64,000 bases of DNA from a virus (IMGVR_UViG_3300033146_002139:103707-167706); one strand, 5' to 3'. Counted from the stretch's first letter, positions 1 through 20,753 are shown. The notes: generated by a model from the sequence alone, not told the origin. Made by a program: numbers and translations.

Positions 1-484
1 AAACACAACTTTCTTTTGAATACAACTGCCCATCCCCATTGATGTCCTTATCTAGTTCGTATTTTTCAACTTTTTCTGCTATATTTTGAAAGCCTTTTAG
101 CTTAGCAACATCTTTTAGAAAATTTTGAAATATCAACCATTCTGTGGATACTTTAACATTCTTAGCTCCGTAAAATCTGTAGGCCTTGTTTTGTTGATTG
201 TAACACCTTGCTATAATGTTTATCCAAATGTTGTAAATTTTTTCGTTCCCTTTTTTATTAGCGTTCCCAATACTTGCAACACCATATATCTTTGGATAGT
301 AAATGTCTTTAACTTCCCCGTTTACGATTTCTCTTATAGAAGCTTTTGTTTTATGTTTCGTTAACAAAAATTCTATTAAAAACTGCCTTTTTTTGTTTTT
401 GCTATCTAGCTCTGTAATTATCTTAAACTTGCCATAGTTATTTGAATTAAATACAGAGCCGTTAGGGATACTTCTTTTTCTCAT
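1..484 (-). CDS. hypothetical protein, partial (N-terminus at 484; continues past window start)
   Basis: The reverse complement from ATG (482-484) reads MRKRSIPNGSVFNSNNYGKFKIITELDSKNKK... and stays open to position 1. This start overlaps the stop of the upstream minus-strand gene (TAATG). The plus-strand ORF 125-364 in the track is probably its shadow. Confidence 0.4.
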   Translation of the reverse strand, partial: MRKRSIPNGSVFNSNNYGKFKIITELDSKNKKRQFLIEFLLTKHKTKASIREIVNGEVKDIYYPKIYGVASIGNANKKGNEKIYNIWINIIARCYNQQNKAYRFYGAKNVKVSTEWLIFQNFLKDVAKLKGFQNIAEKVEKYELDKDINGDGQLYSKESCV

Positions 485-1389
485 TACAACACCATCTCAG
501 TTGATTTTACAATATTTATATTGTATTTCTTTTTAAGGACTTCGTAATCATCGTTGGTTTTTGCCTTATCTATTATAGTAGATGTGCAATCTTCTAAAAT
601 ATAGATTTTAGATGTTATATCAGGTCTTGTTTCGTAGTGCTCTAATATTTGTTTTATAGATTCTATAACACAAAAATCCTTAGCTTCTCCACCAATAATT
701 ATCTTATCGTACTTCTCTAGTTTGTTTAAAAAATCAATATTAACTTGGTTTTTAGGGGAGTATTCCGGCTTTAAAATCCCATACATTTCACTCATTGGGT
801 CTTGTCCTTTTACTAGATATTGTATTGCAGATTTCTTGGCAACACTGTAAAAGTATATCATATTTGTTAATTGGTTTTCTATTGCTGCGCCTTGAGTTCC
901 TTGTAGGCAGTGATATGGCCATATAACTAAAACTTTCTTTCCTAATTTCTCTAGGTTTTCTACATAATCCCTAGAGCCTATAGGATTTATAACAGGCTTC
1001 CACTTCCCATCGTTCAAATCGTCAAGCGTTATTGCTGTCAGAGGTGCAGGATTATCTCCATTCTCATCAACCCACCAGCAAGGATGGAATATTTGAAAAG
1101 GATTGTGAGTGTCAATAGACACCGCTACTCTTGAAATTTTATCCATATTATTATAGATAAATCTAGTAAAATTTTCTACATCTTTATGCGCTCCTGGAAC
1201 ACCAAGGCTACCATTTTCCATAAAATCATTTTGAAAATCTATTCCAATGACAAGTATGTTTTCAGGGTTTTTTGCTGACGGAGACAGATTCTCCTTGTTC
1301 GCTAAAGATAACAAATCACCTTGCACTAAAGGGTTTGTAGTATCTCCAATGCTTGATACATTTACAATTTCTTCATAATTAGTTTTCAT
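484..1389 (-). CDS. isochorismatase-family hydrolase, probable nicotinamidase (PncA-like) with about 50-aa N-terminal extension
   Basis: ILVIGIDFQNDF (Asp), SIDTHNP...FHPCWW (DWHP-like metal site) and GGEAKDFCVIES (catalytic Cys in the G-x-A-x-D-x-CV context) match the Asp-Lys-Cys cysteine-hydrolase pattern. Confidence 0.55.
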   Translation of the reverse strand: MKTNYEEIVNVSSIGDTTNPLVQGDLLSLANKENLSPSAKNPENILVIGIDFQNDFMENGSLGVPGAHKDVENFTRFIYNNMDKISRVAVSIDTHNPFQIFHPCWWVDENGDNPAPLTAITLDDLNDGKWKPVINPIGSRDYVENLEKLGKKVLVIWPYHCLQGTQGAAIENQLTNMIYFYSVAKKSAIQYLVKGQDPMSEMYGILKPEYSPKNQVNIDFLNKLEKYDKIIIGGEAKDFCVIESIKQILEHYETRPDITSKIYILEDCTSTIIDKAKTNDDYEVLKKKYNINIVKSTEMVL

Positions 1390-1669
1390 CTTTCTTCTCC
1401 GTTTTTGTTTTTGAGTCTTCGTTGCTACTTATGTACTTTATGTACTTCACGGGAATACCGTGTATCGTTTCTTCTTTGGTCATGTGGTTATCAACTTCGC
1501 CCATCACAAATCCTACTAACATGCCTACCCCAGCTATGTATCTGTAATTTTCGATAATTCCGGACGACACTAACACCCCTATAATTTGAAACCCTGAGAA
1601 TATTATAAAAAATCTTACAATACCTGCTTTGTATTTTTTTAAAAACTTCTTTATTTTATTCCATTTCAT
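1379..1669 (-). CDS. small membrane protein (2 predicted TM helices)
   Basis: Hydrophobic stretches FFIIFSGFQIIGVLVSSGII and AGVGMLVGFVMG; ATGA overlap with the downstream gene. Confidence 0.4.
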   Translation of the reverse strand: MKWNKIKKFLKKYKAGIVRFFIIFSGFQIIGVLVSSGIIENYRYIAGVGMLVGFVMGEVDNHMTKEETIHGIPVKYIKYISSNEDSKTKTEKKDEN

Positions 1670-1672
1670 GTA

Positions 1673-2182
1673 TTATTCTCCAAGAAATATGGTTTTAGCT
1701 ATTATTGTTTTTGGGTCTACAAATGACATACTCTCAACTTCCTTTTTACTTTTCCATTCAGCTTTTGTAACTTCATCGCCCTCTATCATAGTATCTGTGG
1801 ATTTTGATGTAACAAGTATTTTATATATGGTCATTGTGCTATCGCTATTTCCTACATTTATAAAGTACTTAGCGACCTCCCTAATATCCTTTATGTCAAA
1901 TTCCGGAATATTGCACTCTTCTTTCAACTCTTCAATCATGATTTTGTCATCAGGAAGTTGTTTGTCTATGATTCCGGCGGGTATTTCGTATGTTAAGCCC
2001 TCAATACAAGGGCGGTACTGCATAACTAGCAACATTTTTCCATCTTCGTTTACAACCAAAGCACTAACTGCAGAATTAAGGTCAACTTTTTCATAAGTTT
2101 TTTTATTATAACGGTAGGTTTTTACCTTAACAAATCCATCATACACAATCTTTTCACTACTCATCGCCATTAAAACCCTCAC
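1673..2182 (-). CDS. Nudix hydrolase (ADP-ribose pyrophosphatase-like)
   Basis: Nudix-box-like PAGIIDKQLPDDKIMIEELKEECNI (GX5EX7REUXEEXGU pattern). The size (169 aa) and layout resemble NudF/ADPRase. Confidence 0.6.
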   Translation of the reverse strand: MRVLMAMSSEKIVYDGFVKVKTYRYNKKTYEKVDLNSAVSALVVNEDGKMLLVMQYRPCIEGLTYEIPAGIIDKQLPDDKIMIEELKEECNIPEFDIKDIREVAKYFINVGNSDSTMTIYKILVTSKSTDTMIEGDEVTKAEWKSKKEVESMSFVDPKTIIAKTIFLGE

Positions 2183-2441
2183 TGTCTATATTGTAAGCAT
2201 CTTTAATATCCGTCTTCTGTAAGAAATTACTGTCATTATCACAGTTTTCACACATTAATGACGATGGATAATACTCACATTTATGACACTTTGAATACGT
2301 TGCTTTTCTAAATTTATACACTCCATATGCAAGATATGTTAGTATAAGAATGCTTATTATTGCTACAAACCAAATCAAATTAAACATGTTGACTCCATTT
2401 TTTGGATTGTTGTAAAATAACCTTAAAGTCAATTCCAGCAT
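2157..2441 (-). CDS. small membrane protein with CxxC...CxxC cluster
   Basis: TM helix LIWFVAIISILILTYLAYGVY followed by CHKCEY...CENC; overlaps its neighbours. Confidence 0.35.
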   Translation of the reverse strand: MLELTLRLFYNNPKNGVNMFNLIWFVAIISILILTYLAYGVYKFRKATYSKCHKCEYYPSSLMCENCDNDSNFLQKTDIKDAYNIDSEGFNGDE

Positions 2442-3396
2442 CTCCTATAAGACGAGAGCTGTATTTTGAATAAAAATGTTTTAAAATGTTTTCCGGGTTT
2501 CTTTTTCTATTCATTTTAAATTTAATTTTAGTAACTTCTTTTTGTATTCTGCTGTTTTTAAGAAAGCAATTGCTCAATCTTTCTGGAGCTATAACCCCAT
2601 CTTTTACAAATACTATTTTCTTGTTTACTCTTCTTGCTTTAAACCCTTTTATCATTTTATCCGGAATGGTGTCTACATAAGCTAAGTCTCTATTGTTTAA
2701 GTCTTTAGCTTTAGCTTTAAATCCTTTCCACGATTCAACTATTTTAGAGGCATTCCATTCTACATCCCATGAGCTTGGAGTTTTCCTGTCTCTATCTAGC
2801 GAAATTCTTGATGGCGGGAAGTTATATGCGTATGTTAACTTCGGAATATTCGTAACAAAAAGACCTCCAACATAAATATCTCCAGCATTCTTATCTATTA
2901 TTTGCCCATAGTATTCATTTTCATGGATTATGTCATTTCTTTTTGCTAGCTTAGCATCATATTCCCTAAAACTATCCTTGTCGATGTCAAACTCAATAGA
3001 GAAAGGCATTCTGTTTGCGGTTTCGTGTATCTCTATTCCAAAACATTCTCCAAGATGAATATCGTCATAAAACACTGGGACTAATCTCTTTCCTGGAATA
3101 TCTATTGCAACATCAAGTTCTTCTCTAAGAAGTATGAGTAATGCCATCTTAAGACCTTCTCCATGTTGTCCTATTTTAGAATTATCACCCCTCTTTCCTG
3201 AGATTCCTATCTTTAAAAATTCTAGGCTAGTAGGATTAAAATTGTTCGACATTTTAACAGAGAATGTGTCTTCATCGTTCTCTTCGGTATCGAACACTCC
3301 AAAATCTTCAAAATTTTGAAAAATTTCTCTGAGAGCTTCGTCAATTCCCCAGTTAGGTAAGTACTCTCTGCTTATTCCGTATTTAATTAAGTCCAT
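2380..3396 (-). CDS. hypothetical protein, possible GHKL (Bergerat-fold) ATPase-like N-terminus
   Basis: 338-aa ORF. EIFQNFEDFG (N-box-like E..N..D) and GISGKRGDNSKIGQHGEGLK (G1/G2-like glycine motifs) give a weak GHKL signature. Confidence 0.5.
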   Translation of the reverse strand: MDLIKYGISREYLPNWGIDEALREIFQNFEDFGVFDTEENDEDTFSVKMSNNFNPTSLEFLKIGISGKRGDNSKIGQHGEGLKMALLILLREELDVAIDIPGKRLVPVFYDDIHLGECFGIEIHETANRMPFSIEFDIDKDSFREYDAKLAKRNDIIHENEYYGQIIDKNAGDIYVGGLFVTNIPKLTYAYNFPPSRISLDRDRKTPSSWDVEWNASKIVESWKGFKAKAKDLNNRDLAYVDTIPDKMIKGFKARRVNKKIVFVKDGVIAPERLSNCFLKNSRIQKEVTKIKFKMNRKRNPENILKHFYSKYSSRLIGDAGIDFKVILQQSKKWSQHV

Positions 3397-3514
3397 GTTT
3401 CTTTCCTTTATAAGTAAGCGACCGCCCCTTGAAATTATCGTGGTTAACTATATCTTCTTTACCTTCCTAGTTAGGTGTATAGAGACTAGAAGTCGCTTTT
3501 GTTTAGCAATTACC

Positions 3515-4603
3515 TTACTCTTTTACATCACCTGTTTCAGTAACAACACTTTCTTTTTTAGCTACTTTAGGCTTTCTTTTAGCCTTTGGTTTTACAATCT
3601 TGATTCTACTATCAACAGGAATGCTTATCTCTACAATACCTGCATCAATATTGTATTCCAGTCTTTCAACTTCAAATTTTTCCGGTATAAGAAATGCGTT
3701 CTCTGTTTCAAGGTCAACACTCTCTCCAATAAAAGAGGTTACTTTTGAGTAGTCTACTTTTAAGTAAACAGAATTACTTTTGGTGTCAATCGTTACTTTT
3801 GTGTTTGACTCCGTAGAACCTGGTACTAATACTGCTAGCTTGTAACTTTCAAGTGTTTCTCTAATTGCTTTAATCATTTTGTTCTCCTTTTGTTTTCCAA
3901 TACAACTGACAAAATTATTTTTTAATCTCTGCCAACTTTCAGGCATTGGCTCTTGCATTGGTAATATTTTTATATCATCTTTATTTTTTAATTTAGGATA
4001 GTAAGGTCTACATGTAGGAAATAACACCTCTGCACTTACTTCTTTTCCGTACTCTTCTAGGTACTCTACTAAAGCATCTGTTATATCGTTTTCATGTTCA
4101 TATAGTCTAACAAAATACTTATAGAGGTTTACTAATTTCTCATAATCATTAACAAATTTACTTGTCTGTCCTCCGTCTATACTAACCATCTCTTTTGCAT
4201 TTGGAGAGGTAGGTATTTTCATTGGAAACAAAGGGAATCTTGTCAGTTTAAAATCATATTCACTTTCAAACTCTCCTATAAAGTCGTCCTCACCTCTTTC
4301 ACATCTAGAACCCTCGCATCCGGTGTGCATCGAGCCACCGCCAGCATGTCCTTCAAAATGAACATCGTTGCATCTCTCGCAAAGAGCATCCCTATTCTCT
4401 TCTATTAATAATTCTTGAAGTTTTTCTGCGGTTTGGAGAATAGTATTTTCTTTTTTTGTTTCGGTGTATTCCCCGCTTTCCCACTCACCAAGAACCTCTC
4501 TTCTGTAGCGGGCTGCATCCTTATCTACTAAATCTTTCATTTCTCTAGCCTTACTTTCGCACCAGTCGATGTCGTATAAAATTCCTTTTTCTTTTACAAT
4601 CAT
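3515..4603 (-). CDS. hypothetical protein (Cys/His-rich central region)
   Basis: 362-aa ORF containing CERCNDVHFEGHAGGGSMHTGCEGSRCERGED; no family recognised. Confidence 0.55.
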   Translation of the reverse strand: MIVKEKGILYDIDWCESKAREMKDLVDKDAARYRREVLGEWESGEYTETKKENTILQTAEKLQELLIEENRDALCERCNDVHFEGHAGGGSMHTGCEGSRCERGEDDFIGEFESEYDFKLTRFPLFPMKIPTSPNAKEMVSIDGGQTSKFVNDYEKLVNLYKYFVRLYEHENDITDALVEYLEEYGKEVSAEVLFPTCRPYYPKLKNKDDIKILPMQEPMPESWQRLKNNFVSCIGKQKENKMIKAIRETLESYKLAVLVPGSTESNTKVTIDTKSNSVYLKVDYSKVTSFIGESVDLETENAFLIPEKFEVERLEYNIDAGIVEISIPVDSRIKIVKPKAKRKPKVAKKESVVTETGDVKE

Positions 4604-4682
4604 TTTAAATCCTTATTTAATCTTACGAATGCTAACTCCAACAGGAAACCTAGGTTTGTCAGTATTATCGGTAAGCTCAAAC

Positions 4683-5348
4683 CTAATCAGTCTCATGTTC
4701 TACAAGTTTCTTGGCAAATTCTAAAACTATATCATCTTCCCATGTATGTTTTGCGTAATTGTAAATCATGCAGACAAGCTGAATATTATCTTTTGTATAT
4801 CCTTTTCCTGGAATTATTTGGTCTATAGACGGCCCGTAAGGGGACTTTCCTTTTTTTTTAAGTTCAAACGAGACACCGGTTTTTGCACATTTCCAATTTT
4901 GCTTTTCTGCTAATGAAACGACATAATCACTGGTGATGTCGTAAAACCCAAACTTTTTTGCCCTGCCTATTATAACTCTAGCTATTTCCCTTATATTGCT
5001 CTCTAAGGACATGGTTCTAATTAGCCTGCCTCTTTGCCTTCTGTATTCATCTCTACATTCGCTACTACATCTCTTTCTATTTTTAATACCTACATAATTA
5101 AACTTCCTATTACATACAGTACAAGTAGATGTTTTAGTTGTCGTTAGTCGCTTTTGCATGAATTCTTTAGCTAGGCATCCACAACTCTTAGTTCCTTCTT
5201 TTCTTACAAGGGATGATGCTCTTACTGTTTTTTCTCCACCGCAGCTACACTTGCATAGCCAAGCAGGTTTCCCATCTTTATTACTTGCTCTTGCTTTGAC
5301 AGTTAATCTTCCAAATTCTCTATTAGTTAAATCAGTAGGAGTAGACAT
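4683..5348 (-). CDS. zinc-ribbon protein with C-terminal HNH/His-Me-finger-like region
   Basis: CKCSCGGEKTV...SCGCLAKE and CTVCNRKF...CSSEC near the N-terminus; C-terminal IDQIIPGKGYTKDNIQLVCMIYNYAKHTW resembles an HNH-type nuclease core. Confidence 0.5.
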   Translation of the reverse strand: MSTPTDLTNREFGRLTVKARASNKDGKPAWLCKCSCGGEKTVRASSLVRKEGTKSCGCLAKEFMQKRLTTTKTSTCTVCNRKFNYVGIKNRKRCSSECRDEYRRQRGRLIRTMSLESNIREIARVIIGRAKKFGFYDITSDYVVSLAEKQNWKCAKTGVSFELKKKGKSPYGPSIDQIIPGKGYTKDNIQLVCMIYNYAKHTWEDDIVLEFAKKLVEHETD

Positions 5349-5399
5349 AAAAATCCTTTTTTAAGGCAATATACTATTTGTAAGGGCAAGTGTCAATAG

Positions 5400-6704
5400 T
5401 TATTTAATTTTTCTTATTGATACTCCAACAGGAAACCTTGGAATACCGTTATCATCTCCGGTTTCAAAATACCTTATAGTGAGCATCTCACCTATAAAAG
5501 ATGCTGCCCTTTCAAAAAGGTCTTTTCTGTAGTTTCTAGCACCTTTTGGTTTGCAGTCAAATTCATATCCTTGCTTCGTGATACATCTCCAAACGACCGT
5601 ACCTATGTCGTTTCCATCTGCCTCTTTATATCCTATTATCTCAAACTCGTCATCTTCAAAATCTTTCTTTTTTAGTAAGTTTTCAGACCTTTTGTCGATT
5701 TCGTAAATGCCTTCCATATTTCTTATTATAGAACCTTCGTACCCTTCAAGGATAAGCTTTTTATGTATCTCGTCAACCTCTTCCCAATTCTGTGCAATAT
5801 AATTAGGAACTATTTCAAGGTATTCGCATTGGTCAACTATCTTTTTTGCTTCATTGTATCTTGTCATAAAAACTTCTGCAGAGACCTCAAATTTATCTAT
5901 TTTACCTTTAGGACATTTGCCTAGATAATCAATCCAAAATGAATCGTACACCATTAATTTTATTTTTAATTGGTCAGCAATTTTATCTGCTGTCATATTC
6001 TTTTCTCTGGCAACAATACTTGTTATCTCTTGGAAAGTAAGCTCGTGAGAATAAAGCTCTCCATCAAGCACTCTGTTTCTTGGTGCAAAATCCTCAACTT
6101 CTCTTTTAATATGGTCAAAAAGCTCAAATACTGTATTCTCTCTTGATTGCATTCTAGCTTTTATTTTTCTTTGTCCATTATTGTCAGGTATTCTTGTAAA
6201 GCTGTTTTTTACAGTACATCTTATCCCGTCTAATTTAGGTTGGACTACAACAGGGAATGTAATTTTTTCTTTTACAGGTTTTTTAGGTGATGTTGACTTG
6301 CCGATTTTTTTAGCAGTCTTTCTTATATCACTTTCTTTCTTTGCCAGCATAGGCAGTATAACTAATCTGTGTTCTGCTTCATAAGCGCTTATAAAATAAC
6401 CTACTTTCTTTTTCTTTTTCCACATTGATAAAGCCTGAGAAATAGCCTGTTCTTCTACTGTAGTCTCATTAGCTTTTCCAATATTTTTGCCGGATTTAAT
6501 AATCTTCCCTTTATCGATTGTTAATTTACCATCTACATAACCTCTATATGTCTTTATGACTATATTATAATTGTCGTTAAATGGATTCGGGTCGTTTATA
6601 TCTGCACCATCTTTAAGTATAGACTCAACTTTGATAGTGTTTTTCTGTATCTTGCCTGTACTAGCTTTTTTATAAAGGGATGGCATTTCTTTTATAATGC
6701 TCAT
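5400..6704 (-). CDS. ATP-dependent DNA ligase (with about 140-aa N-terminal extension)
   Basis: Motif I VVVQPKLDGIRCTV (KxDGxR), EGYEGSIIRNMEGIYE (motif IV) and LLKKKDFEDDEFEIIGY (motif V/KxK), consistent with a nucleotidyltransferase-superfamily ligase. Confidence 0.7.
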   Translation of the reverse strand: MSIIKEMPSLYKKASTGKIQKNTIKVESILKDGADINDPNPFNDNYNIVIKTYRGYVDGKLTIDKGKIIKSGKNIGKANETTVEEQAISQALSMWKKKKKVGYFISAYEAEHRLVILPMLAKKESDIRKTAKKIGKSTSPKKPVKEKITFPVVVQPKLDGIRCTVKNSFTRIPDNNGQRKIKARMQSRENTVFELFDHIKREVEDFAPRNRVLDGELYSHELTFQEITSIVAREKNMTADKIADQLKIKLMVYDSFWIDYLGKCPKGKIDKFEVSAEVFMTRYNEAKKIVDQCEYLEIVPNYIAQNWEEVDEIHKKLILEGYEGSIIRNMEGIYEIDKRSENLLKKKDFEDDEFEIIGYKEADGNDIGTVVWRCITKQGYEFDCKPKGARNYRKDLFERAASFIGEMLTIRYFETGDDNGIPRFPVGVSIRKIK

Positions 6705-6713
6705 ATTAATCTC

Positions 6714-8117
6714 CTAAAGTTTTTTTAATAGTAATTCACCTAGCAATTCTTTATCTGTACTCTTATATCTTTTTTCAAAAGACTCAGCAGGTTTTGTTGA
6801 GTAGGAAGATTCATTTATTGTTTTTGTAACTGCATCAATATATTTGCTAAACCTACCTTCAGTAGTATGGTAAAAGACTTTAGAGATGCTATTCTTTTTC
6901 AAAAGCTTTTCATATTTAAGTGCTAACGATGTGTCTATTGCAAATGAGATGTATTCAGTTTTATTTATAAACTCTACCCAATCTACGGTATATATTTTTT
7001 CTTTTATCTCGGAAGCTCTACCTGTATTTTTAAATCCCAATAGAAGCATTTTAGTACCGTATAGCTTTTTTTCCTCTATAAAGTTAATGACCTTTTTAAA
7101 TTCCGAAAGAGACTCTAATCCCATGACATAATGCAACGTGATATTATATAGATTCGGTCTGTGTTTTAAAATCTTCTCTATATCTGACACGGTGTTAATT
7201 GATATTCCAATACTTCCTGTTATATTAAACAGTCTATCTGCAAATGATGGGTATTTTAGCCAATCTGTTTCTCTTGTTGTAAAATTAGGTGTAATACCTT
7301 TTTCTCTTGTGTATTCTAAAATCTCTAATAGTCTAGGATGGTTAGTTGTTTCTCCGCCGCCAAAAGCTATTTCAAAAACACCTTTTTCTGCTAGTACATC
7401 AATAATATCATTTACATATAAAGTTTCTTTCCCATCAGGAGTTGAATTGTTATAGCAAAAAGAACAATTGTGTTCACATTTGTGCGATATTCTTAAGTCT
7501 ATTAAGTCAGGAGTTATGTTGTTGTTATTTTCTATGCTATCCATCTCTTCGAGTTTGTTAGAGTATCTGATTTTATTCCCGTAGTTTACATCAAACAGTG
7601 TCCATCCAAAAGATTCTTTCCTTATTTTGTAATAAGAACTTTCTCTCATTATAGGTTCGTATACGACTCCAATTTGGGGCCTAAATTTGTCATCGCAGTT
7701 ATCGTTTCCACCTTCAATGACAAGGTTTTCATTGTTTGCTATTGAATATGCAAATTCTTTAAAAAAATCTATAGCATATTCGCCATCTGCATATTTTGGC
7801 ACTTCAAATAAAGACTGATGGTCAACATAATCTCCGCTATCAAATTCAACATCAGGAAATGCTTTAGCAACTATGCGTTTTTTCTTTGACTTATCTTTTT
7901 CGTTATCTTCCCATCTACCTCCGATATTTGTCCATAATGTTGCAGCGAAGTATCTAAGTTTAGACTCTTTGCTTAAACAAAGGAAAGTATTCCATCCAAA
8001 TTCCCCGTCGCTATCATCATCATATAAGTCTTTTTTATTTTTCGCACTCACTTTTATTATAGAGTGACTGCTACTACTGTTTGTGGCAAATCCTCTTCTT
8101 ATATTTATAGCTTTCAT
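6714..8117 (-). CDS. radical SAM domain protein with about 200-aa N-terminal domain of unknown function
   Basis: CEHNCSFCYN (Cx3Cx2C) followed by FGGGETTNHP (glycine-rich SAM-binding region); 467 aa. Confidence 0.6.
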   Translation of the reverse strand: MKAINIRRGFATNSSSSHSIIKVSAKNKKDLYDDDSDGEFGWNTFLCLSKESKLRYFAATLWTNIGGRWEDNEKDKSKKKRIVAKAFPDVEFDSGDYVDHQSLFEVPKYADGEYAIDFFKEFAYSIANNENLVIEGGNDNCDDKFRPQIGVVYEPIMRESSYYKIRKESFGWTLFDVNYGNKIRYSNKLEEMDSIENNNNITPDLIDLRISHKCEHNCSFCYNNSTPDGKETLYVNDIIDVLAEKGVFEIAFGGGETTNHPRLLEILEYTREKGITPNFTTRETDWLKYPSFADRLFNITGSIGISINTVSDIEKILKHRPNLYNITLHYVMGLESLSEFKKVINFIEEKKLYGTKMLLLGFKNTGRASEIKEKIYTVDWVEFINKTEYISFAIDTSLALKYEKLLKKNSISKVFYHTTEGRFSKYIDAVTKTINESSYSTKPAESFEKRYKSTDKELLGELLLKKL

Positions 8118-8698
8118 TTTATATCCAATTTTTTAAGTTTAACTTCTATAGAGTGATTTTTATAGTCAGATTCGTTGAGCTTTCTTTTTTCTACAGTACC
8201 TATAACTAAAGATTTCGAATCGTTGCTTATTTCTAAGTAGTCTTTGATATGTAGATTATCAGTGTCTATAAGAAATATTTGCTTATTTTTAGTATCGTTA
8301 CCACGTATAGCTTTTCTTATTTTAGACATAGCATGTGTTTGAGGATAAAAAACTATGCTATTTTTTTTCTTAAGGAGTTCTATTTCCATTTCTGCATCAT
8401 TTACTTTTTTGTTTGTTCCTGTTTTTATCCCTTTTGAGCATTCGTTTTTTGATACCTCTTTATTCGTTGCCGAGTGCAAGAACAGTGGGTGTAATGCTGT
8501 ATCTGTATTATTAAAAAAAACAATGTCCACATTTTCATTATTCCTCAATATACTAATAGCAAAATCCATTAGTATTGTAGTTTTTCCTGAATTTGCATAT
8601 CCTGTTAAAGCATAGGCAGTATTTTCTAATGCATTTAGTTGCTTTTTGCTGTCAAGACTGATGTCTCCATTGTACATTTCATTTCCAATTTTAATCAT
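8114..8698 (-). CDS. small RecA-like P-loop ATPase (Sak4/DnaB-C-terminal-like?)
   Basis: Walker A LTGYANSGKTTILMDFA and Walker B-like KQIFLIDTDNL in 194 aa; ATGA-coupled to the radical SAM gene; sits near ssb. Confidence 0.5.
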   Translation of the reverse strand: MIKIGNEMYNGDISLDSKKQLNALENTAYALTGYANSGKTTILMDFAISILRNNENVDIVFFNNTDTALHPLFLHSATNKEVSKNECSKGIKTGTNKKVNDAEMEIELLKKKNSIVFYPQTHAMSKIRKAIRGNDTKNKQIFLIDTDNLHIKDYLEISNDSKSLVIGTVEKRKLNESDYKNHSIEVKLKKLDIK

Positions 8699-10295: not shown

Positions 10296-11477
10296 TTAAA
10301 TCATTGAAATTTTAACCGGGTTAGCCACGAACCCTATATCGGATACAAAATTATCTCCGATTACTTTTCTTAAAATATTTGTTGCTCCGTTCCAGTCTGC
10401 ATTCACTAATTTATTGATACTTGACTGAAATAATCCTCGCTTAATTCTTTTACCTTTATACTTCTTGTGCTTACCTATCTTTTCAAGAGCTAAAGCATCA
10501 CATTTACTGGTATAGCTTTCTTCATTTCTTATCACTTTAATTCCAATTTCTTCTGATTTATACTCTAATTGCTGAATAAATCGCAAATAAGGGATGTTTA
10601 CAAAGTTTTGATTATTAACCTTACCAATGTTAGCATTTTGTTTCCAGCCTTGATTATAGCCAACTACAATATTTTTAATATCATTCTCCAAACAGTAGTT
10701 AATTATATATCTTGAGCTTTTATGCAGGTAATCATTAATCTTGTTGTTCCTTTTTAAAGTTAATCTGTTAATTCTATTAGATAATTGCTTATCGCCTACA
10801 AAACTCTGTAATTTAGCTTTCTTTTTATTGTAGTATTGATTTATGGATTTTAATGGTTTGCCATTACCAATTATAGGTTTTAAACCTGCATTGGTTGAAG
10901 TTGCAAATAAATTATTAACTCCTAAATCAAGACTGATGTATAAATCTTCGTTTAGATTTTCATAGGCTTTTACCTCCTTTTTGTAAACTATTTCAATAAT
11001 ATTATATCCAACTCTAGGAAGTATCCTAACTTGATTTACATTATTTACTTTAGTCTTTAATGGATTTATATTAGATTTTTTAGGAAACAATATAAATCCA
11101 TTTTTAAGTTTAACTTGCTGATTAGTAAAGATAATAATATTTTTACCGTTTTTATCTTTATACTTTGGTATTCTAGGTTTAGCTTTAAACTTCTTTGGAT
11201 TCTTAAAAAAAGCTTTTTCTGCTTTAATAAAAGACTTCCAGTTTTTAAATAAAACTTTAATTATTTGCTGAGATGTTTGAGCAAGTAAAGCTCTGTAATC
11301 GGACTGGTTCTCTTTAGCTAATTGAGTTGTTAAGGTATATTCTGACAATAAGTTACCATTACCTATAAACTCTTGACGAATTAAGTAATTACAGTAGTTG
11401 TATAAATTCTTGGATAAGAAATGTAAGCTATCCATATTTGAATTTTGTTTTACAATATGTCTCTCAACTCTTTGCAT
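10296..11477 (-). CDS. tnpB: TnpB-like protein (IS200/IS605 OrfB family), apparently lacking the RuvC-II Glu and the zinc finger
   Basis: N-terminal OrfB_IS605 region (QRVERHIV...LYNYCNYLIRQ), RuvC-I ISLDLGVNNLFAT and RuvC-III NADWNGATNIL are present. At the RuvC-II position it has NIVVGYNQGW where the paralogues have IIIETLDLK / LYFETLDIK / ISIEDLKIK. The C-terminus has a single Cys instead of CxxC..CxxC. Confidence 0.75.
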   Translation of the reverse strand: MQRVERHIVKQNSNMDSLHFLSKNLYNYCNYLIRQEFIGNGNLLSEYTLTTQLAKENQSDYRALLAQTSQQIIKVLFKNWKSFIKAEKAFFKNPKKFKAKPRIPKYKDKNGKNIIIFTNQQVKLKNGFILFPKKSNINPLKTKVNNVNQVRILPRVGYNIIEIVYKKEVKAYENLNEDLYISLDLGVNNLFATSTNAGLKPIIGNGKPLKSINQYYNKKKAKLQSFVGDKQLSNRINRLTLKRNNKINDYLHKSSRYIINYCLENDIKNIVVGYNQGWKQNANIGKVNNQNFVNIPYLRFIQQLEYKSEEIGIKVIRNEESYTSKCDALALEKIGKHKKYKGKRIKRGLFQSSINKLVNADWNGATNILRKVIGDNFVSDIGFVANPVKISMI

Positions 11478-12070: not shown

Positions 12071-12529
12071 TTATTCATATTTCCTCCCTTCTTTAACAGA
12101 ATTGATTAAAACTTCTATATACTCTCTATCTTCATCTGAAATGTATGATTTTTCGTATTCTCCATACGACCCTTTTTTGCAGACTATCATCCATATTTTA
12201 TCTATCGCTATTTCGTAGTCGTCTGTATTTATATCTTGCTTTTCTGTTTGAGCTGTTGAGATATACTTTTCATCTTTATGGTCGTTGTCAAAATCGTTTT
12301 CAGCATTATGCTTATTTGAATATTTTCTGTACCACTTAGCATAGTCGCTATCTTTTTCAGCGGTTTCGTACTGCCTAAGTGCCTGACCTTTATTACTCAT
12401 TATAAACTCTTTTGCAGCTGCTTCATCAGTATGTATTTGGAAAGTTAAACACGCAGGTATAGCAACAGCGGCTAAAATAGCTACGATAACAGCAATAACC
12501 ATTACTTCGATTAGTGTAAATCCTTTCAT
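12071..12529 (-). CDS. type IV pilin-like protein (prepilin-type N-terminal cleavage/methylation motif)
   Basis: MKGFTLIEVMVIAVIVAILAAVAIPA has a canonical class III signal (G|FTLIE) plus a hydrophobic helix; 152 aa. Confidence 0.55.
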   Translation of the reverse strand: MKGFTLIEVMVIAVIVAILAAVAIPACLTFQIHTDEAAAKEFIMSNKGQALRQYETAEKDSDYAKWYRKYSNKHNAENDFDNDHKDEKYISTAQTEKQDINTDDYEIAIDKIWMIVCKKGSYGEYEKSYISDEDREYIEVLINSVKEGRKYE

Positions 12530-15536: not shown

Positions 15537-16325
15537 CTACTCCACTATTAAATTAGTACCTTTAAGAGCAAAACCCTTAAATTCATCTGTTTGTGCTTTC
15601 TCAATCCATTCATTATCAACATTATCTCCGTAATGGATAAGTAACATTTTACTCTTAATTTTACTAGCCAATTTTTTTAGTCCGTTGTAGTGTGCATGAA
15701 CACCACTTTCAAATGGAGATGTTTCACAATCTTGAATTATTAAGTCAACATCATCATAAAGACCCATAAGCTGATTTGGAGCATGTTGAGAATCGGTAGT
15801 CATCAATACCTTACTATTCCCTGTGTCTACTACTAAACCATAAGAGTCCATATAATTAAAACCGTTTACAATATGAATCATTTGAGCCGGTGTGAATTTT
15901 ACACCATCTATCGTAAAACTATTGTTATCTTTTATAGAATTAGGTTCAAAGTAGGTATGTAGTGTAGCCTCTTTTTCTCCATTTTTCATTTGGTGGCTAG
16001 CTAAACTTCCGAGCCCACCTGATAAAGAATTGCTCCATAATGTTTTCATTACATTGTGATTTGCAAAAAGTTTTATTTTTTCTTTTGTTGGGTCAAAGTA
16101 TGTCATAAAAGCCATATATTCTAACCCTCCAATATGGTCTGCATGAGCGTGGCTAATATAAATCCAATCTATGTCTGATGGTGAAAGTCTATAATCAGCT
16201 AGACTAATTTTAGTATCAAATCCACAATCTATAAGACCTTTAGTCTTATCTGTTTCAACAAGTATTAATGTGTTGTTGAATATTAAAGAGCTCATGTTCC
16301 CTGAGCCTAAAAATGTTAATTTCAT
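15537..16325 (-). CDS. MBL-fold metallo-hydrolase
   Basis: ISHAHADHIGG (HxHxDH motif) plus downstream D and H residues; 262 aa. Confidence 0.7.
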   Translation of the reverse strand: MKLTFLGSGNMSSLIFNNTLILVETDKTKGLIDCGFDTKISLADYRLSPSDIDWIYISHAHADHIGGLEYMAFMTYFDPTKEKIKLFANHNVMKTLWSNSLSGGLGSLASHQMKNGEKEATLHTYFEPNSIKDNNSFTIDGVKFTPAQMIHIVNGFNYMDSYGLVVDTGNSKVLMTTDSQHAPNQLMGLYDDVDLIIQDCETSPFESGVHAHYNGLKKLASKIKSKMLLIHYGDNVDNEWIEKAQTDEFKGFALKGTNLIVE

Positions 16326-16337
16326 TTTTTCTCCTTG

Positions 16338-16664
16338 TTATAGTTTTACAAATTCATGTCTTATTATTTTTACAGTAAAAGATTTAGTGTTTTTCTTTCG
16401 CTCGTCAATATAAATATCGAAACACCTCTCAACTTCCTCTTTATTAGAAAATCTCTCCGCAGTCGTGTCATAGTATGATATAGCACCGCTTCCACCTGAG
16501 CTTTTACGAAGACCTCCCCACTGCGGGGAAACTATATTAAGAAACGAAAATAGTCCGTCCCAAATGTTGTGTTTAATGAAACATTTGTAGTATACATTAA
16601 TATTTCCTTCGTAATCAATTTCCTCTGTGTGTGTTATTTTATACTCAATCGTTATATCACTCAT
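16338..16664 (-). CDS. hypothetical protein
   Basis: 108-aa ORF, ATGA-coupled to the next gene. Confidence 0.45.
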   Translation of the reverse strand: MSDITIEYKITHTEEIDYEGNINVYYKCFIKHNIWDGLFSFLNIVSPQWGGLRKSSGGSGAISYYDTTAERFSNKEEVERCFDIYIDERKKNTKSFTVKIIRHEFVKL

Positions 16665-17071
16665 AATTCTCCCTTATACTTTTCTAGCTTACCGCCTAAT
16701 TTATCATTGACTAATTTATATATATATTCCCAATCAACTTCATCTTCGTTCATTGGAAGCTTGATTAAGCTTTTGTCATCTATGTAAATATCAGCACCTA
16801 TTTTCCTTGAATCATTTCCAAAAGCAGTTATCCAAGACGGATTATTTTCATTGAATTTATCATATTTAATATCATCTGCTTTTAATGCGAATTTCGCCGT
16901 TTCTACATCAATTCCTAGTGTTCTGCAAGAATTAATTACTATATAGTAACCGTCTCTATGTAGAAGATTTATATATTCTCTTGCTGTTTTAAAAACCACT
17001 CCCACTTCGGGAAATTCACTGTTGTAAATTGTTTTGTCGAAATCTATTGCAACTACCGGTTGTAAGTTCAT
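16661..17071 (-). CDS. hypothetical protein (possible HAD-like phosphatase: VAIDFDKTI)
   Basis: A DxDxT-like motif IDFDKTI near the N-terminus; 136 aa. Confidence 0.45.
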   Translation of the reverse strand: MNLQPVVAIDFDKTIYNSEFPEVGVVFKTAREYINLLHRDGYYIVINSCRTLGIDVETAKFALKADDIKYDKFNENNPSWITAFGNDSRKIGADIYIDDKSLIKLPMNEDEVDWEYIYKLVNDKLGGKLEKYKGEL

Positions 17072-17829
17072 TTTAACTCCTCTTTATATTTGAATAATTT
17101 TTCTACTGATGTTTTGCTTTTTCCTGCAATTCCATTAGCCGATAAAGAGCTTTTAGCTTCTTTTTCCCATATACACTCAAAATCATCAGGAGCTTCATAT
17201 TCGCTAATAAAAACATCAAACCCTAATAAGCTTTTTTCTCTAGCCCAATCCCAAAATTCGCTGTGGTTAAATCCTTTGCTTGTAGAGTATTGTGTTGTTC
17301 CTTTATATGGAATATCGCAGTAAACAATACTGTCCTTGGGTAAGAAAACATCTTTATAATCTTTGCAGGTAAAAGTAATATCTTCCATATTTGGGATTTG
17401 TTTTTTTATGTTTCTAACACTTTCTGCAATATAATCTCTAGTAGTCCCTATTTTAGTAACAGATTTTCCGCTGTATCCTCCCTCAAAAAATCTACCATTA
17501 GCACTTCCAATAAATCCAATCCATCCGACTATATCATCTGTCATATTCATAGTATGCTCGTATCTTTTTTCTTTACCATTGAAAACATCTCTTGCTAAAC
17601 TATACAAATCTTTTGGTATCTCTTCTGGATATACAACTCCTGACAATATTCCTTTCCACATAGCTATTAAATATTTGTTGTTGTCATTCGCAAACCTTAC
17701 TCCGTCAACCTTATCTATAACATTCATTCCTCCGGCAAAAGGTTCTATATAACTTCTGTCGTTTTTGTTCTCAAGTATAATTGGTAATATTTCTTTTGCA
17801 AATCTAGCTTTACTTCCTACATATTTCAA
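17068..17829 (-). CDS. DNA adenine methyltransferase (Dam/D12 class N6-MTase)
   Basis: KYVGSKARFAKEILPII, EPFAGGMNV (SAM motif) and IVYCDIPYKGTTQY (DPPY-type catalytic motif). Confidence 0.8.
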   Translation of the reverse strand: MKYVGSKARFAKEILPIILENKNDRSYIEPFAGGMNVIDKVDGVRFANDNNKYLIAMWKGILSGVVYPEEIPKDLYSLARDVFNGKEKRYEHTMNMTDDIVGWIGFIGSANGRFFEGGYSGKSVTKIGTTRDYIAESVRNIKKQIPNMEDITFTCKDYKDVFLPKDSIVYCDIPYKGTTQYSTSKGFNHSEFWDWAREKSLLGFDVFISEYEAPDDFECIWEKEAKSSLSANGIAGKSKTSVEKLFKYKEELK

Positions 17830-17830
17830 A

Positions 17831-18616
17831 TTATTTCTCCAATATTTTTTTAATTTCCTTTGTCAAATCGACACAATTATGAACTTGATATTTAGTTTTG
17901 GTGCTACTAAAATAAGATAATTTCATTCCGCCATTAATTTTAAGTTTTGTATTCTTCTCGATAATATACTTATAAAGGCTAAGTTGTAGTGAATAATGGT
18001 AAAAGTTAGCATCAGGAAACTTTTTAAATGGAGCAAGCATTGTTGACCATTTATTTTCAAACTTAAGCTCTTTGTTGGTCTTGTGGTCAAATATATACAG
18101 TTTTCCATCATTCCCAAGGCTTAAATTGTCTAACATACCTGCTATATCCGACTTTTTATCTGCAACCATAAGTTCATTGACTATGCTTGTATATCCCTTT
18201 TTATAATCAGTATAAAAAGAATCTCCCATTTGCTTCAAGTGTTCGTTGTCATACTCCATAACCTTACCATCTAGTAAGAATTCCATATAAAGATGATGCA
18301 GTGTTCCTTTGGCATTTGCTATGTCTGATATCTCTTTCCATCTGTCAAGCATCTCTTGTTGAGTGATGCCCTCTTCTTCTGCTTTTTTCTTTGACCAAAA
18401 ATTGGCATCGAATGGCTTCACAAATTTATGCACCCACCCTGTACCACTTATAGAGAATTCTTTTTTAACTGGAAATACATTTGGGTTTTTACCTTCCCCA
18501 TAATCTAAATAAGAATACCTATGTGTTGGTTCGTCAAAATCTATGTACTTAAAAACTTCAAGCTCTTTTTTTATTTCTACTATTTTTTTTATTATTTCAC
18601 TTCTTGTCAATTTCAA
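17831..18616 (-). CDS. PD-(D/E)XK-family nuclease-like protein
   Basis: DIAGMLDNL...LYIFDHKTNKELK...YSLQLSLYKY resembles the RecB/Cas4-type D...D/ExK and QxxxY motifs; no Cys cluster. Confidence 0.5.
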   Translation of the reverse strand: MKLTRSEIIKKIVEIKKELEVFKYIDFDEPTHRYSYLDYGEGKNPNVFPVKKEFSISGTGWVHKFVKPFDANFWSKKKAEEEGITQQEMLDRWKEISDIANAKGTLHHLYMEFLLDGKVMEYDNEHLKQMGDSFYTDYKKGYTSIVNELMVADKKSDIAGMLDNLSLGNDGKLYIFDHKTNKELKFENKWSTMLAPFKKFPDANFYHYSLQLSLYKYIIEKNTKLKINGGMKLSYFSSTKTKYQVHNCVDLTKEIKKILEK

Positions 18617-18748
18617 AATATTCCTCGAATGTTTTAGTTGTTTTTATAAGCTTGTTTTTAATATAATAATCAAACTTATTTCTAAGTGATGGTAAAAACC
18701 AGTCAGACGACTGTGTTCTCGGTGTATTTTTAATATAATCTCTAACCT

Positions 18749-18949
18749 TTAGCAAGTCTTTTTCATTTCTTCTACCGTAGTATTGAGACTTAGCCAATCG
18801 GCTGAAGTTTCAAATAGCCGTTTAGCCGTTTCACTGGCCAATCCATATTCAAATCCGCATTTACAACAGGTGAATTTTTTTTCACTCTCATTGCCTAGAT
18901 TTTGTTTTGAAAAAGAGCATTTGCATTTCGGGCAACCTTTGTTTGTCAT
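18749..18949 (-). CDS. small zinc-ribbon protein
   Basis: CPKCKCSF...CCKCGFEY; it overlaps the weaker ORF 18597-18797, whose true start is uncertain. Confidence 0.4.
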   Translation of the reverse strand: MTNKGCPKCKCSFSKQNLGNESEKKFTCCKCGFEYGLASETAKRLFETSADWLSLNTTVEEMKKTC

Positions 18950-19144
18950 TTAATTCTCCTTTGCGAATTTATTCAACTCTTTCTTGTATTTAATTATTTC
19001 TTCATTTGTAGCGTGGTATATAGTGGTCATTTTACAATCCCAATCGTCTTGTGTGTAAGTAGAAAAGATACAGTCCTTACAGTTTCCGTCAGGATGAGAA
19101 TGACAATAATCCCTCATTAGTGTTATGTAATCTTTACTTTTCAC
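18950..19144 (-). CDS. small hypothetical protein (His/Cys-containing)
   Basis: 64-aa ORF with CHSHPDGNCKDC. Confidence 0.4.
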   Translation of the reverse strand: MKSKDYITLMRDYCHSHPDGNCKDCIFSTYTQDDWDCKMTTIYHATNEEIIKYKKELNKFAKEN

Positions 19145-19385
19145 CTATTCTCCTATGTTTTAGACCTAGTAGATTTATTTCATCATTTGTCAACATATCT
19201 ATTCCCCAAAATCCACAACCTTTAAATAATGCGTAGTCTATATCTTTTGTTAATAGATATATTTTACTTGCCCTTCTAACATCTTTTGCATCGGCCATAA
19301 ATCCATTTGCCAAAAGAAAACTATATATTTTTCTTGCTGTAAAAGTAATTCTTAACGCTCCTATTGTTTTGCAAAATATATTCAC
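19134..19385 (-). CDS. small hypothetical protein
   Basis: 83-aa ORF overlapping both neighbours by a few nt. Confidence 0.4.
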   Translation of the reverse strand: MNIFCKTIGALRITFTARKIYSFLLANGFMADAKDVRRASKIYLLTKDIDYALFKGCGFWGIDMLTNDEINLLGLKHRRIGEK

Positions 19386-20642
19386 TTAATTCTCCAATTC
19401 TATAAGATATTTTATTGTTGTCTGATTTCCTCTGTAGACAATCATTTCATTATTCTTTAAATCTATTCCTCCATGCGCGAAAACAGAATCATAGTCTCCT
19501 TTATTTTTTAATGTGTTAGCTGAAAGATTATAACAGCTTGAATCGTGTTTATGTATATCCATTTGCTTTCCAGTGTGAACTTTAAATACCGCCATAAATC
19601 CCGTATTATCACTACCACCTGACCAATAAGAACCTCTTAAAGATGTATATCCAAGAGATTTTCTTGCTTTATCTGCAAAGTATATCCCATCACCAAACAT
19701 AGAACCTGTGTAAACTGCAGAAGATGGTCTTATTAAAAGTCCTGTCTTCATTATATTTATAAAGTTCTCATTCCTGGAGCCGTGGAATAACAATGCTGTC
19801 GTTTTATCTTTGGAATCGGCAATGTTTTTATTAAAAACTTTTAATGTAGCTTTATTTGTAACTTCGTATGCCGTTTTAAACTTGTTAGATATTCCGCCAA
19901 GATGTTTTTTAATTTCAACTTCCTGTTTTGGATTGATTGTACTAACAGAAATACCAAGGACATCCAACATTGTTTTGTTGTCTAAAGTTTCTCCGGTTTC
20001 TTCTTCAGCCTCTAGTATCCCTACTTTTGTTGCCATAGAATCAAGATTGTCCTGTTCTTGTATAAGCATTTTTTTTATTTCAGCTACATTTTTTCTTAAA
20101 ATACCTGCCGTTTCTTCTATGAGATGGTCTGATACTCTCCCCATTCTTCGAGGTATTACCTGAAATAGGTCTGTAAGTGTTTCGTTGAAAAAGGTTACTT
20201 CTCTGCCTGTTTTAGCGTTAGAAAATAAGATATTTAGTAGTCTTTGTGCTTCGTCAACTTGCGACTGAGTAACAGACTCGGCAGATACAGTATAATTCGC
20301 TGCCACAGACTTGTTGGTATAATTCATTAATTGGATTATCAATTTTTCTATAACGGCGTTAGGAATTGGAGTATATCCAGATGATTTCGAGACAACCTTA
20401 ATCGAACGTCTTTCTGTTTCATCTTTATATCCTTTTGCTATTTTAGACTTATATACTTTATCCCATTTGTACATAGGGTAAATCTTCTCAGCCATACTAG
20501 CCCCATATCTTCCATACTCGGCTCTAAATCTGTCTCCGGTGATTTCTGTCATTCTATAAATCTTGTTGTTGTTTCTTCCCCCTGTTCCGTTTACCATTAT
20601 TAGCTCTACTGCTTGTCCATTCTCCACGTTTCCTGCTAACAA
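19386..20642 (-). CDS. PARP-like ADP-ribosyltransferase (WGR domain + helical region + H-Y-E catalytic domain)
   Basis: WGR-like N-terminus (KIYRMTEITGDRFRAEYGRYGAS...KWDKVYKSKIAKGYKDET). Catalytic LLFHGSRNENFINIMKTGLL (His-Gly-Ser), GSMFGDGIYFADKARKS (Tyr) and NNEMIVYRGNQ (Glu) match the PARP1-type H-Y-E signature. Confidence 0.75.
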   Translation of the reverse strand: MLAGNVENGQAVELIMVNGTGGRNNNKIYRMTEITGDRFRAEYGRYGASMAEKIYPMYKWDKVYKSKIAKGYKDETERRSIKVVSKSSGYTPIPNAVIEKLIIQLMNYTNKSVAANYTVSAESVTQSQVDEAQRLLNILFSNAKTGREVTFFNETLTDLFQVIPRRMGRVSDHLIEETAGILRKNVAEIKKMLIQEQDNLDSMATKVGILEAEEETGETLDNKTMLDVLGISVSTINPKQEVEIKKHLGGISNKFKTAYEVTNKATLKVFNKNIADSKDKTTALLFHGSRNENFINIMKTGLLIRPSSAVYTGSMFGDGIYFADKARKSLGYTSLRGSYWSGGSDNTGFMAVFKVHTGKQMDIHKHDSSCYNLSANTLKNKGDYDSVFAHGGIDLKNNEMIVYRGNQTTIKYLIELEN

Positions 20643-20753
20643 AAATTTACATAAATATAAACTTTTGAGTTTTACTGCTTCATCGTACTCGATTTCAATA
20701 TGATTCTCTCTACTCTCGTTGATTTTAATACTCCGCAGTCGTTAATTTCCTTA

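Follow-up and report, generated by a model that had tools for sequence, protein, structure and literature searches.

A long-form viral nicotinamidase, the mobile four-gene cassette of its relatives and a possible route of NAD+ salvage

Known systems and the locus

Three phage pathways that reconstitute nicotinamide adenine dinucleotide (NAD+) have been described, namely NARP1 (Adps plus Namat), NARP2 (Nampt plus Nmnat) and NARP3 (PnuC plus NadR), and their logic, the rebuilding of NAD+ from what NADase defences leave behind, is the same as the one that we propose for the subject of this article: a 301-residue nicotinamidase-like protein encoded near the left end of a 64,000-nucleotide stretch of viral DNA (IMGVR_UViG_3300033146_002139:103707-167706; the whole of this stretch is called the window from here on). 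A second point of comparison is the PncA/Pnc1 group of nicotinamidases, for which structures are available from Pyrococcus horikoshii (1ILW/1IM5), Acinetobacter baumannii (2WTA), yeast (3V8E) and Mycobacterium tuberculosis (3PL1); the window protein has the fold, the Asp-Lys-Cys triad, the Asp-x-His...His site and the aromatic pair in common with them, but is about 100 residues longer and some 15-22% identical to the solved enzymes. Phage G also has a PncA-like gene, known by annotation only. Finally, there is the TerY-P triad, in which a vWA protein of the TerY type, a PP2C phosphatase and a Ser/Thr kinase are combined; it was described by Anantharaman et al. (2012), and Gao et al. (2020) report anti-phage activity for variants of it, both works being given here as cited in PMC11090510.

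In mobile elements the long form of nicotinamidase, unlike PncA/Pnc1, sits in an operon-like cassette with signalling proteins, and these have the same three domain types as TerY-P, in the same order, with the same tight linkage and mobility; one difference is that a nicotinamidase gene precedes the triad, and another that the triad is seen in relatives only and not inside the window. The cassette adjoins NARP1 genes in relatives, but its route would be the deamidated one, from nicotinamide to nicotinate and from nicotinate adenine dinucleotide (NaAD) to NAD+ via NadE, on which none of the three NARP pathways relies. Nicotinamidase is not mentioned in the NARP1-3 papers nor in two systematic surveys of viral NAD+ and ADP-ribose (ADP, adenosine diphosphate) systems, and our literature searches returned no paper linking nicotinamidase to phage counter-defence or to TerY-P. 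Each enzyme described below adds a member to a superfamily already known, and the subfamily, the cassette and its recurrence with NARP1 and NadE were not found in the literature searched.

Our preferred reading is that the window protein is a competent metal-dependent nicotinamidase that belongs to a mobile four-gene cassette, and that it serves deamidated NAD+ salvage in an NAD+-centred conflict between phage and host. Taken as a whole, we would place this just on the probable side. What the analysis establishes is the fold, the active-site residues and the counts of neighbouring genes; the substrate, the direction in which metabolites flow, any role in counter-defence and the trio of this particular phage are inferences from these.

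A nicotinamidase of unusual length

484-1389, minus strand: long-form nicotinamidase (PncA-like cysteine amidohydrolase), 301 residues; assigned by active-site residues, PDB sequence matches and fold

An initial annotation of the window had called this protein nicotinamidase-like from three motifs, and the family assignment holds. The motifs, I50-D-F-Q-N-D-F56, D93-T-H-N-P97 and G233-G-E-A-K-D-F-C240-V, are all present, and in PDB sequence alignments D51, D93/H95, H160 and C240 fall on D10, D52/H54, H71 and C133 of the P. horikoshii enzyme (1ILW), so that the catalytic cysteine, C240, is at the aligned position; K194 lies within a conserved K-G motif aligned to the nicotinamidase 29IV. Across an alignment of 32 relatives, reaching down to 45% identity, the triad D51/K194/C240, the metal ligands D93/H95/H160, together with H102, and the ring-stacking aromatics F56/W157 are invariant. 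The five best matches among PDB sequences are all nicotinamidases (29IV at 7e-7, then 1ILW, 2H0R, 2WT9 and 3PL1), and the same is true of the top Foldseek matches in the PDB to an AlphaFold2 model of the protein, which has a mean predicted local distance difference test score (pLDDT) of 75.5: these are 2wta (2.7e-9), 3v8e (3.1e-9), 1ilw, 3r2j and 3o93, with template modelling scores on the target of 0.64-0.73 for the top nicotinamidase matches. A metal triad of this kind is what sets nicotinamidases apart from other cysteine hydrolases of the same fold, and in the solved PncA/Pnc1 structures it binds the free pyridine nitrogen; because the triad draws this line, we accept nicotinamidase-type chemistry on a free pyridine carboxamide as the prediction that follows from sequence and model.

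Judged by its sequence, the protein is a member of a distinct 'long PncA' subfamily of about 300 residues, whose 1092 homologues, each of some 302 residues, come from Bacillota (Firmicutes) chromosomes and from phages and prophages of Lachnospiraceae and other Clostridia. Relatives found in IMG/VR and metagenome scans are all at most 70% identical to it, a tblastn search with the nicotinamidase gave four records only, all of them unannotated, and a megablast search of window positions 1-6000 against GenBank phages gave no match. Part of the extra length is an N-terminal extension, which the initial annotation had rightly noticed and had put at about 50 residues; a length of about 41 is the better estimate because the canonical enzymes begin at about residue 42, and the extension is helical, conserved and confidently modelled. 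Another part, which that annotation did not mention, is an insertion of about 48 residues, placed between H95 and W157, in which the motif QIFHPxWWxD is invariant.

A conserved cassette in relatives

We surveyed 190 loci holding relatives of the nicotinamidase, drawn from IMG/VR, metagenomes, assemblies and GTDB species genomes, a sample in which pattern-seeded searches favour close relatives and whose counts include duplicates between collections. In relatives of at least 55% identity, the nicotinamidase gene is followed by genes for a vWA protein of about 221 residues, a PP2C phosphatase of about 208 and a Ser/Thr kinase of about 567. Clustering of open reading frames (ORFs) in the 99 viral and metagenome loci with a called nicotinamidase finds the vWA gene in 58, the PP2C gene in 55 and the kinase gene in 44, many of the others being incomplete loci, and the trio is also present in 41 of the best 80 species genomes. 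The gap between the nicotinamidase and vWA genes is at most 62 nt in 49 of the 58 loci. Neighbours change around the cassette (19 different ones upstream and 23 downstream of the 44 complete cassettes) with the gene order kept, and the settings range from prophages, beside portal and capsid genes, through large phage contigs to plain chromosomal surroundings. In the phage and mobile-element branch, the four-gene cassette, nicotinamidase first, is one that moves as a unit.

The protein of about 221 residues is, from its sequence, a vWA domain of the TerY type, and we call it so because its metal-ion-dependent adhesion site (MIDAS) motif D35xS37xS39...T99...D135 is invariant, because 5 of 19 members match the Pfam VWA family (best 1.5e-5, in addition to a precomputed PF00092 match) and because its name in the source data, from the Joint Genome Institute (JGI), is YegL; a profile search with it against the PDB gave noise only. 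At E<=0.01, PADLOC has no match for the nicotinamidase or the vWA protein, and none of its matches for the PP2C and the kinase is labelled TerY-P; the kinase does weakly match defence kinase models there (PD-T4-6, 3.8e-10). The C-terminal 300 or so residues of the kinase have no PDB sequence match beyond the kinase core, and no recognised zinc ribbon or oligonucleotide/oligosaccharide-binding (OB) fold. In one locus (L001), counter-defence genes (Gad2, Apyc1-like) lie inside or near the cassette, and in L001, L019 and L020 other RNA ligases lie beside it.

What lies next to the nicotinamidase gene in the window itself is the following:

1-484, minus strand: first 161 codons of a homing-endonuclease-like ORF that continues beyond the window; read as such from its sequence, with homologous ORFs in relatives

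The ATG of this edge ORF overlaps the TAA stop codon of the nicotinamidase gene. It is 52% identical to an ORF of L060 and 33% identical to ORFs in L027, L034, L041 and L061, and in all five loci the homologue sits exactly between the nicotinamidase and vWA genes, in a gap of 830-882 nt. The ORF has no Pfam match; by its sequence it looks like a free-standing homing endonuclease, and its placement suggests that the nicotinamidase/vWA boundary is a recurrent homing site. Because the same insert precedes the vWA gene in five loci, we would expect the vWA/PP2C/kinase trio of the window phage just past the left edge, beyond coordinate 1 and after the endonuclease insert, and such a position would be why the initial annotation missed it. 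A second free-standing gene of homing-endonuclease type lies elsewhere in the window (4683-5348, minus strand; HNH/endonuclease VII PHROGs, 3.9e-22).

NAD+ genes beside the cassette

Of particular interest is the company that the cassette keeps. In three loci (L005-L007) a Prs-like gene, which is an Adps candidate, comes after the kinase gene, and then a gene for a 494-residue protein and NadE, the region spanning 10003-12912 in L005. The 494-residue protein had also been considered as a nicotinate-specific PncB, which would have made this a Preiss-Handler operon; that idea was ruled out by its match, in L005, to the solved Namat structures 9W5X/9W5W at 1e-162, compared with 1e-55 for an ordinary NAMPT, and by sequence the set is NARP1 plus NAD synthase. 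The order NadE-Adps-Namat-cassette is found in L159, L178, L179 and L184 and a reversed arrangement in L168, and L055 has the order Namat-nicotinamidase-NadE. In five further loci (L031, L113, L115, L122 and L138) the genes that come after the cassette are a short, canonical one of the isochorismatase family and one that is Adps-like, and in L031, for which a longer flank is available, a Namat-like gene and NadE come next (region 15619-20873); such a short gene is also found beside the long form in L153. The NadE genes of relatives match PF02540 at 1e-60 and 1e-39, the former value belonging to the NadE beside a PARP-like gene in L020, and an NMNAT-like adenylyltransferase gene stands directly upstream in 13 loci, with 8 distinct sequences.

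Elements of Lachnospiraceae and other Clostridia look like carriers of an extended NAD+ island in which amidated and deamidated routes are mixed. The initial annotation had placed the nicotinamidase in NAD+ handling, and that part of its proposal is strengthened by the Namat/Adps, NadE and NMNAT-like neighbours. NadE is needed only for the deamidated route, in which it turns NaAD into NAD+, and finding it repeatedly with the nicotinamidase therefore suggests that in these elements nicotinamide is channelled by way of nicotinate.

The Nudix protein and the PARP-like gene

1379-1669, minus strand: small protein of 96 residues with two hydrophobic (membrane-like) stretches; ORF and JGI gene call
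1673-2182 (probable start 2170), minus strand: Nudix hydrolase of the clade of ADP-ribose and nucleoside diphosphate (NDP)-sugar pyrophosphatases, with a variant box; assigned by PF00293 and fold
19386-20642, minus strand: PARP-like ADP-ribosyltransferase (PF00644, 2.5e-22); given for context only

According to the initial annotation, the nicotinamidase and the Nudix protein are encoded by two adjacent minus-strand genes, and these would act together with the PARP-like gene. The coordinates of the two genes are right but the adjacency is not, as the 96-residue ORF lies between them: it starts 4 nt past the Nudix stop codon and overlaps the start of the nicotinamidase gene by 11 nt. JGI annotates this small ORF as a gene, another contig has a 94-residue relative at least 90% identical to it, and family searches with it gave no match. 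The left 27 kb of the window are a single block of minus-strand genes, and a promoter and terminator scan found no minus-strand terminator-like site in positions 1-7000, so that transcription units cannot be delimited here and adjacency in itself says little about function.

The Nudix ORF encodes 169 residues from a GTG start, and since the JGI product (P0121) has 165, the ATG at 2170 is the likelier start. The protein matches PF00293 at 8e-7 (29.6 bits, the cut-off being 21.1), its NCBIfam matches all fall far under their cut-offs, and its PDB sequence matches are the Thermus thermophilus ADP-ribose pyrophosphatase (ADPRase) Ndx4 (6e-6), NUDT14 (2e-5), a Bacillus methanolicus ADPRase (1.5e-4) and NUDT5. 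An AlphaFold2 model (pLDDT 77.6) gives 509 Foldseek matches in the PDB at E<=0.001, of which the best 50 listed are all Nudix proteins and mostly ADPRases or NDP-sugar hydrolases; the top ones are 8wv3, 3x0n, 1mqw, 5c7q, 1viq and 9gzv, and the M. tuberculosis ADPRase, a Bdellovibrio NDP-sugar hydrolase, NudF and YffH are among the matches. With Ndx4, NudF, the M. tuberculosis ADPRase, NUDT5, NUDT14 and YffH the window protein has in common the N-terminal beta-strands, the QxRP and E-I-P-A-G motifs, the metal glutamates and a C-terminal DPKT motif, and at some 165-170 residues it is of a size with Ndx4. It differs from them in its box, which reads G-x5-L-x7-E-E-L-K-E-E-C-N-I: the spacing of the consensus GX5EX7REUXEEXGU is canonical and glutamates E85, E88 and E89 are retained (E85 and E89 being the equivalents of Ndx4 E82 and E86, mutated in PDB entries 1V8U (E82Q) and 1V8V (E86Q)), but L, E and N stand in place of E6, R14 and G21. 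A further difference is at the position of the ADPRase signature proline, which is V110 in the window protein (NVGNSDS, against SPGFTDE of Ndx4). Dunn et al. are said to have placed this proline, in 1999, some 15-16 residues past the Nudix box.

Is this, then, a gene in decay? Its closer clade speaks for the opposite. A search of 1.84 billion representatives gave 68 representative clusters at E<=1e-10 and, at E<=1e-30, the protein itself only. With these clusters for the Nudix protein and the 1092 homologues of the nicotinamidase, neither ORF is a product of chance. Among the 64 aligned members, E85, E88 and E89 are each kept in 62-63 and R57 in all 64, and the signature proline occurs in just 5; box positions 6 and 14 are E with R in 17, L, K or I with E in 41 and other combinations in 6, and mixed E-E or L-R pairs are found in none. 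It appears from these sequences that the canonical salt-bridge pair has been swapped out as a unit, the metal-binding glutamates staying, and covariation as strict as this therefore points to a maintained variant box and not to a decaying gene. The protein is probably active, and by its sequence affinities ADP-ribose or another NDP-sugar is the most likely substrate. Calling it ADPRase-like, as the initial annotation did, is sound in so far as its nearest neighbours in sequence and structure are ADP-ribose and NDP-sugar pyrophosphatases, and needs the qualification that the box is non-canonical and the signature proline a valine.

That the three proteins make up one module, which would handle both products of the phage's own ADP-ribosylation, we consider improbable. 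Each of the activities is plausible by sequence: the active site of the nicotinamidase is complete, the Nudix protein groups with the ADPRases, and the H-Y-E motifs of the PARP-like protein (LLFHGSR, GIYFAD and NEMIVY) align to PARP1/2, with a match to phrog_23333 at 1.3e-57. The three genes also share a strand in one long block with no minus-strand terminator match in positions 1-7000, and PARP-like homologues are found 8-9 kb upstream of the nicotinamidase gene in L019, L020 and L065, those of L019 and L020 having WGR and PARP regulatory domains and lying beside an NAD synthase gene. But these three loci, which represent 2 distinct phages, are the only ones of the survey with a PARP-like homologue near the nicotinamidase gene; in the window itself the PARP-like gene lies 18 kb upstream, and an IMG/VR scan with the PARP-like protein gave no match. 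A homologue of the window Nudix protein is found by tblastn in 0 of the 190 loci within flanks of 6-10 kb of the nicotinamidase gene, the small ORF and the next upstream proteins (94, 338 and 362 residues) have no tblastn match in loci L001-L101, and Nudix relatives on three other short contigs lie in a context unlike that of the window. The linkage is therefore not conserved, a third gene separates the nicotinamidase from the Nudix gene, and the Nudix protein lacks the signature proline; moreover, a PARP moves ADP-ribose to targets, and free ADP-ribose would arise only if a glycohydrolase also acts. Neither the nicotinamidase-Nudix pair nor the three-part module is supported by this comparison, and the Nudix gene is most likely an independent, lineage-specific accessory gene and not a dedicated partner of the nicotinamidase. 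For annotation the lesson is a general one, that neighbours in a long phage gene block should not be taken as a functional module. A 302-residue gene near one of the Nudix relatives proved unrelated.

What the cassette might do

If we are right about deamidated salvage, the sequence of events would be as follows. Cleavage of NAD+, by NADase defences of the host or by the PARP-like transferase of the phage, would release nicotinamide, which the long nicotinamidase would turn into nicotinate and ammonia; nicotinate would then enter the deamidated Preiss-Handler route (PncB, NadD and NadE, whether host- or phage-encoded), and NAD+ would be rebuilt. A further effect of removing nicotinamide might be to free ADP-ribosyltransferases, the phage PARP among them, from inhibition by their product, as is familiar from Pnc1 and Sir2. 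The route could supplement NARP1, or stand in for it, where ADP-ribose cannot be had or nicotinamide is in excess, and the vWA/PP2C/kinase trio would probably be a phosphorylation switch on or around the nicotinamidase step. In the window phage, the Nudix protein could in addition turn ADP-ribose into adenosine monophosphate (AMP) and ribose-5-phosphate.

A bolder version of this proposal, which we offer as tentative and ourselves doubt more than we believe, is that the long nicotinamidase is the enzymatic arm of a TerY-P-type phosphorylation switch and forms with NadE, alongside NARP1, a fourth strategy of phage NAD+ reconstitution in Clostridia, and a deamidated one. Were this true, TerY-P triads would gain their first defined metabolic partner. 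The three described phage pathways use amidated intermediates, and a phage nicotinamidase beside NARP1 and NadE would point to nicotinate salvage as a further route, one that would fit Lachnospiraceae hosts if nicotinamide salvage there runs via PncA and PncB, as we assume. The tight coupling to the trio, for its part, makes TerY-P-type modules concretely open to experiment; they were described in 2012, and no mechanism is known for them.

Several observations do of course weigh against the reading that we prefer. The region ends at coordinate 1, so the trio is not visible within the window, and tblastn with proteins from relatives finds 0 homologues of NadE, Adps, Namat or NMNAT in its 64 kb, which are part of a contig of 167.7 kb (PnuC and NadR were not specifically searched for). 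NARP1 itself consumes nicotinamide, and an adjoining nicotinamidase could therefore compete with it and not help it. The 301-residue protein does not reach Pfam Isochorismatase (PF00857) at E<=0.01, a family for which 11 of 120 listed homologues have a precomputed match, and it scores 42 bits against the NCBIfam PncA model NF008623, far under the cut-off of 174, so that it is not a canonical PncA; its structural model drops below a pLDDT of 50 exactly in the active-site loops 94-104, 158-171 and 194-217. When duplicates are set aside, the 58 vWA loci hold 40 distinct sequences. Finally, a distant branch of the family (47-58% identity; Bacillus, Brevibacillus, Aneurinibacillus and Clostridia of the human gut) has no trio and sits among the housekeeping genes RlmH, HtrA, Fur and TadA, so that the enzyme may be nothing other than ordinary NAD+ salvage carried by a phage.

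This last point is also an argument for regarding the whole locus as a set of ordinary auxiliary metabolic genes, a host-derived nicotinamidase and a housekeeping Nudix hydrolase with no part in immunity and with the trio as an unrelated neighbour, and Nudix genes are indeed common accessory genes of phages (phrog_1198). We think this unlikely, given that the four genes stay tightly spaced and together across at least 19 genomic backgrounds and that NARP1, a pathway whose part in counter-defence has been characterised, is a recurrent neighbour of the cassette; the DNA ligase of the window is, besides, ATP-dependent (ATP, adenosine triphosphate), so no special demand for NAD+ arises from it. 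A different question is whether the enzyme acts on nicotinamide at all, or whether its insertion and extension have reshaped the pocket of a nicotinamidase scaffold for another pyridine or pyrazine carboxamide or a small amide. The failed PncA and Isochorismatase thresholds, the poorly modelled active-site loops and a large insertion whose invariant motif adjoins the metal site would all fit such a change, and the short isochorismatase-family gene beside the long form in L031 and L153 hints that the two are not redundant. Set against this are the invariance of the metal triad and of both ring-stacking aromatics and a gene neighbourhood that is specifically NAD+-related, and they leave a change of substrate very unlikely in our view.

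The remaining alternative keeps the cassette intact and reverses its purpose: a TerY-P-like switch would govern a nicotinamide-destroying effector and so block NAD+ resynthesis, either in competing phages that depend on NARP1 or NARP2, as superinfection exclusion, or in the host. Both of those pathways need nicotinamide, the cassette is mobile and found in chromosomes as well as prophages, TerY-P-like triads have been reported to act against phages on their own (Gao et al. 2020, again as cited in PMC11090510), and the kinase has its weak matches to PADLOC defence models. Yet the cassette lies repeatedly beside NARP1 and NadE in one and the same element, so that a weapon of this kind would sabotage its own neighbours; counter-defence genes are nearby both in the window phage (Apyc1) and in L001 (Gad2), and in PADLOC the vWA protein has no match and the PP2C and kinase none that bears the TerY-P label. 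We hold such a weapon to be quite unlikely.

Other genes in the window

Beyond the genes discussed so far, the window holds a number of features that deserve a mention. In the same minus-strand block as the nicotinamidase lies the counter-defence gene referred to above, an anti-Pycsar Apyc1 homologue (15537-16325, minus strand; PF23023 at 71 bits, the cut-off being 50; metallo-beta-lactamase domains are present). Directly upstream of the Nudix gene come a 94-residue protein that includes a hydrophobic stretch and has a tail rich in Cys (2157-2441, minus strand), a 338-residue protein with a match to phrog_6077 at 7.8e-51 and a faintly sacsin/HATPase-like N-terminus (2380-3396, minus strand), and a 362-residue orphan (3515-4603, minus strand). 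The ATP-dependent DNA ligase lies at 5400-6704, with genes for a 467-residue radical-SAM protein and then a 194-residue P-loop protein, which has a weak match to the nSTAND nucleoside triphosphatases, directly upstream (6714-8698, minus strand).

Within the block of replication genes there are two TnpB/IS605 OrfB-like genes (10296-11477 and 20754-21896, both minus strand), each combining OrfB_IS605 with a Cas12f1-like TNB domain. A 758-residue protein (22393-24669, minus strand) has LAGLIDADG domains above the Pfam cut-offs and weak matches, under the cut-off, to Hint and the DnaB C-terminal domain, and is perhaps a replicative helicase with an intein; a DnaG-type primase gene adjoins it (24666-25856). 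The N-terminal methylation motif of prepilin type in a 152-residue protein (12071-12529, minus strand; PF07963, 2.2e-5) is an unusual feature for a block of phage replication genes. Far to the right, at 61378-62577 on the minus strand, lies an RtcB RNA ligase gene (PF01139, 4.6e-112), whose presence is consistent with repair of tRNA or other RNA against the anticodon nucleases of the host.

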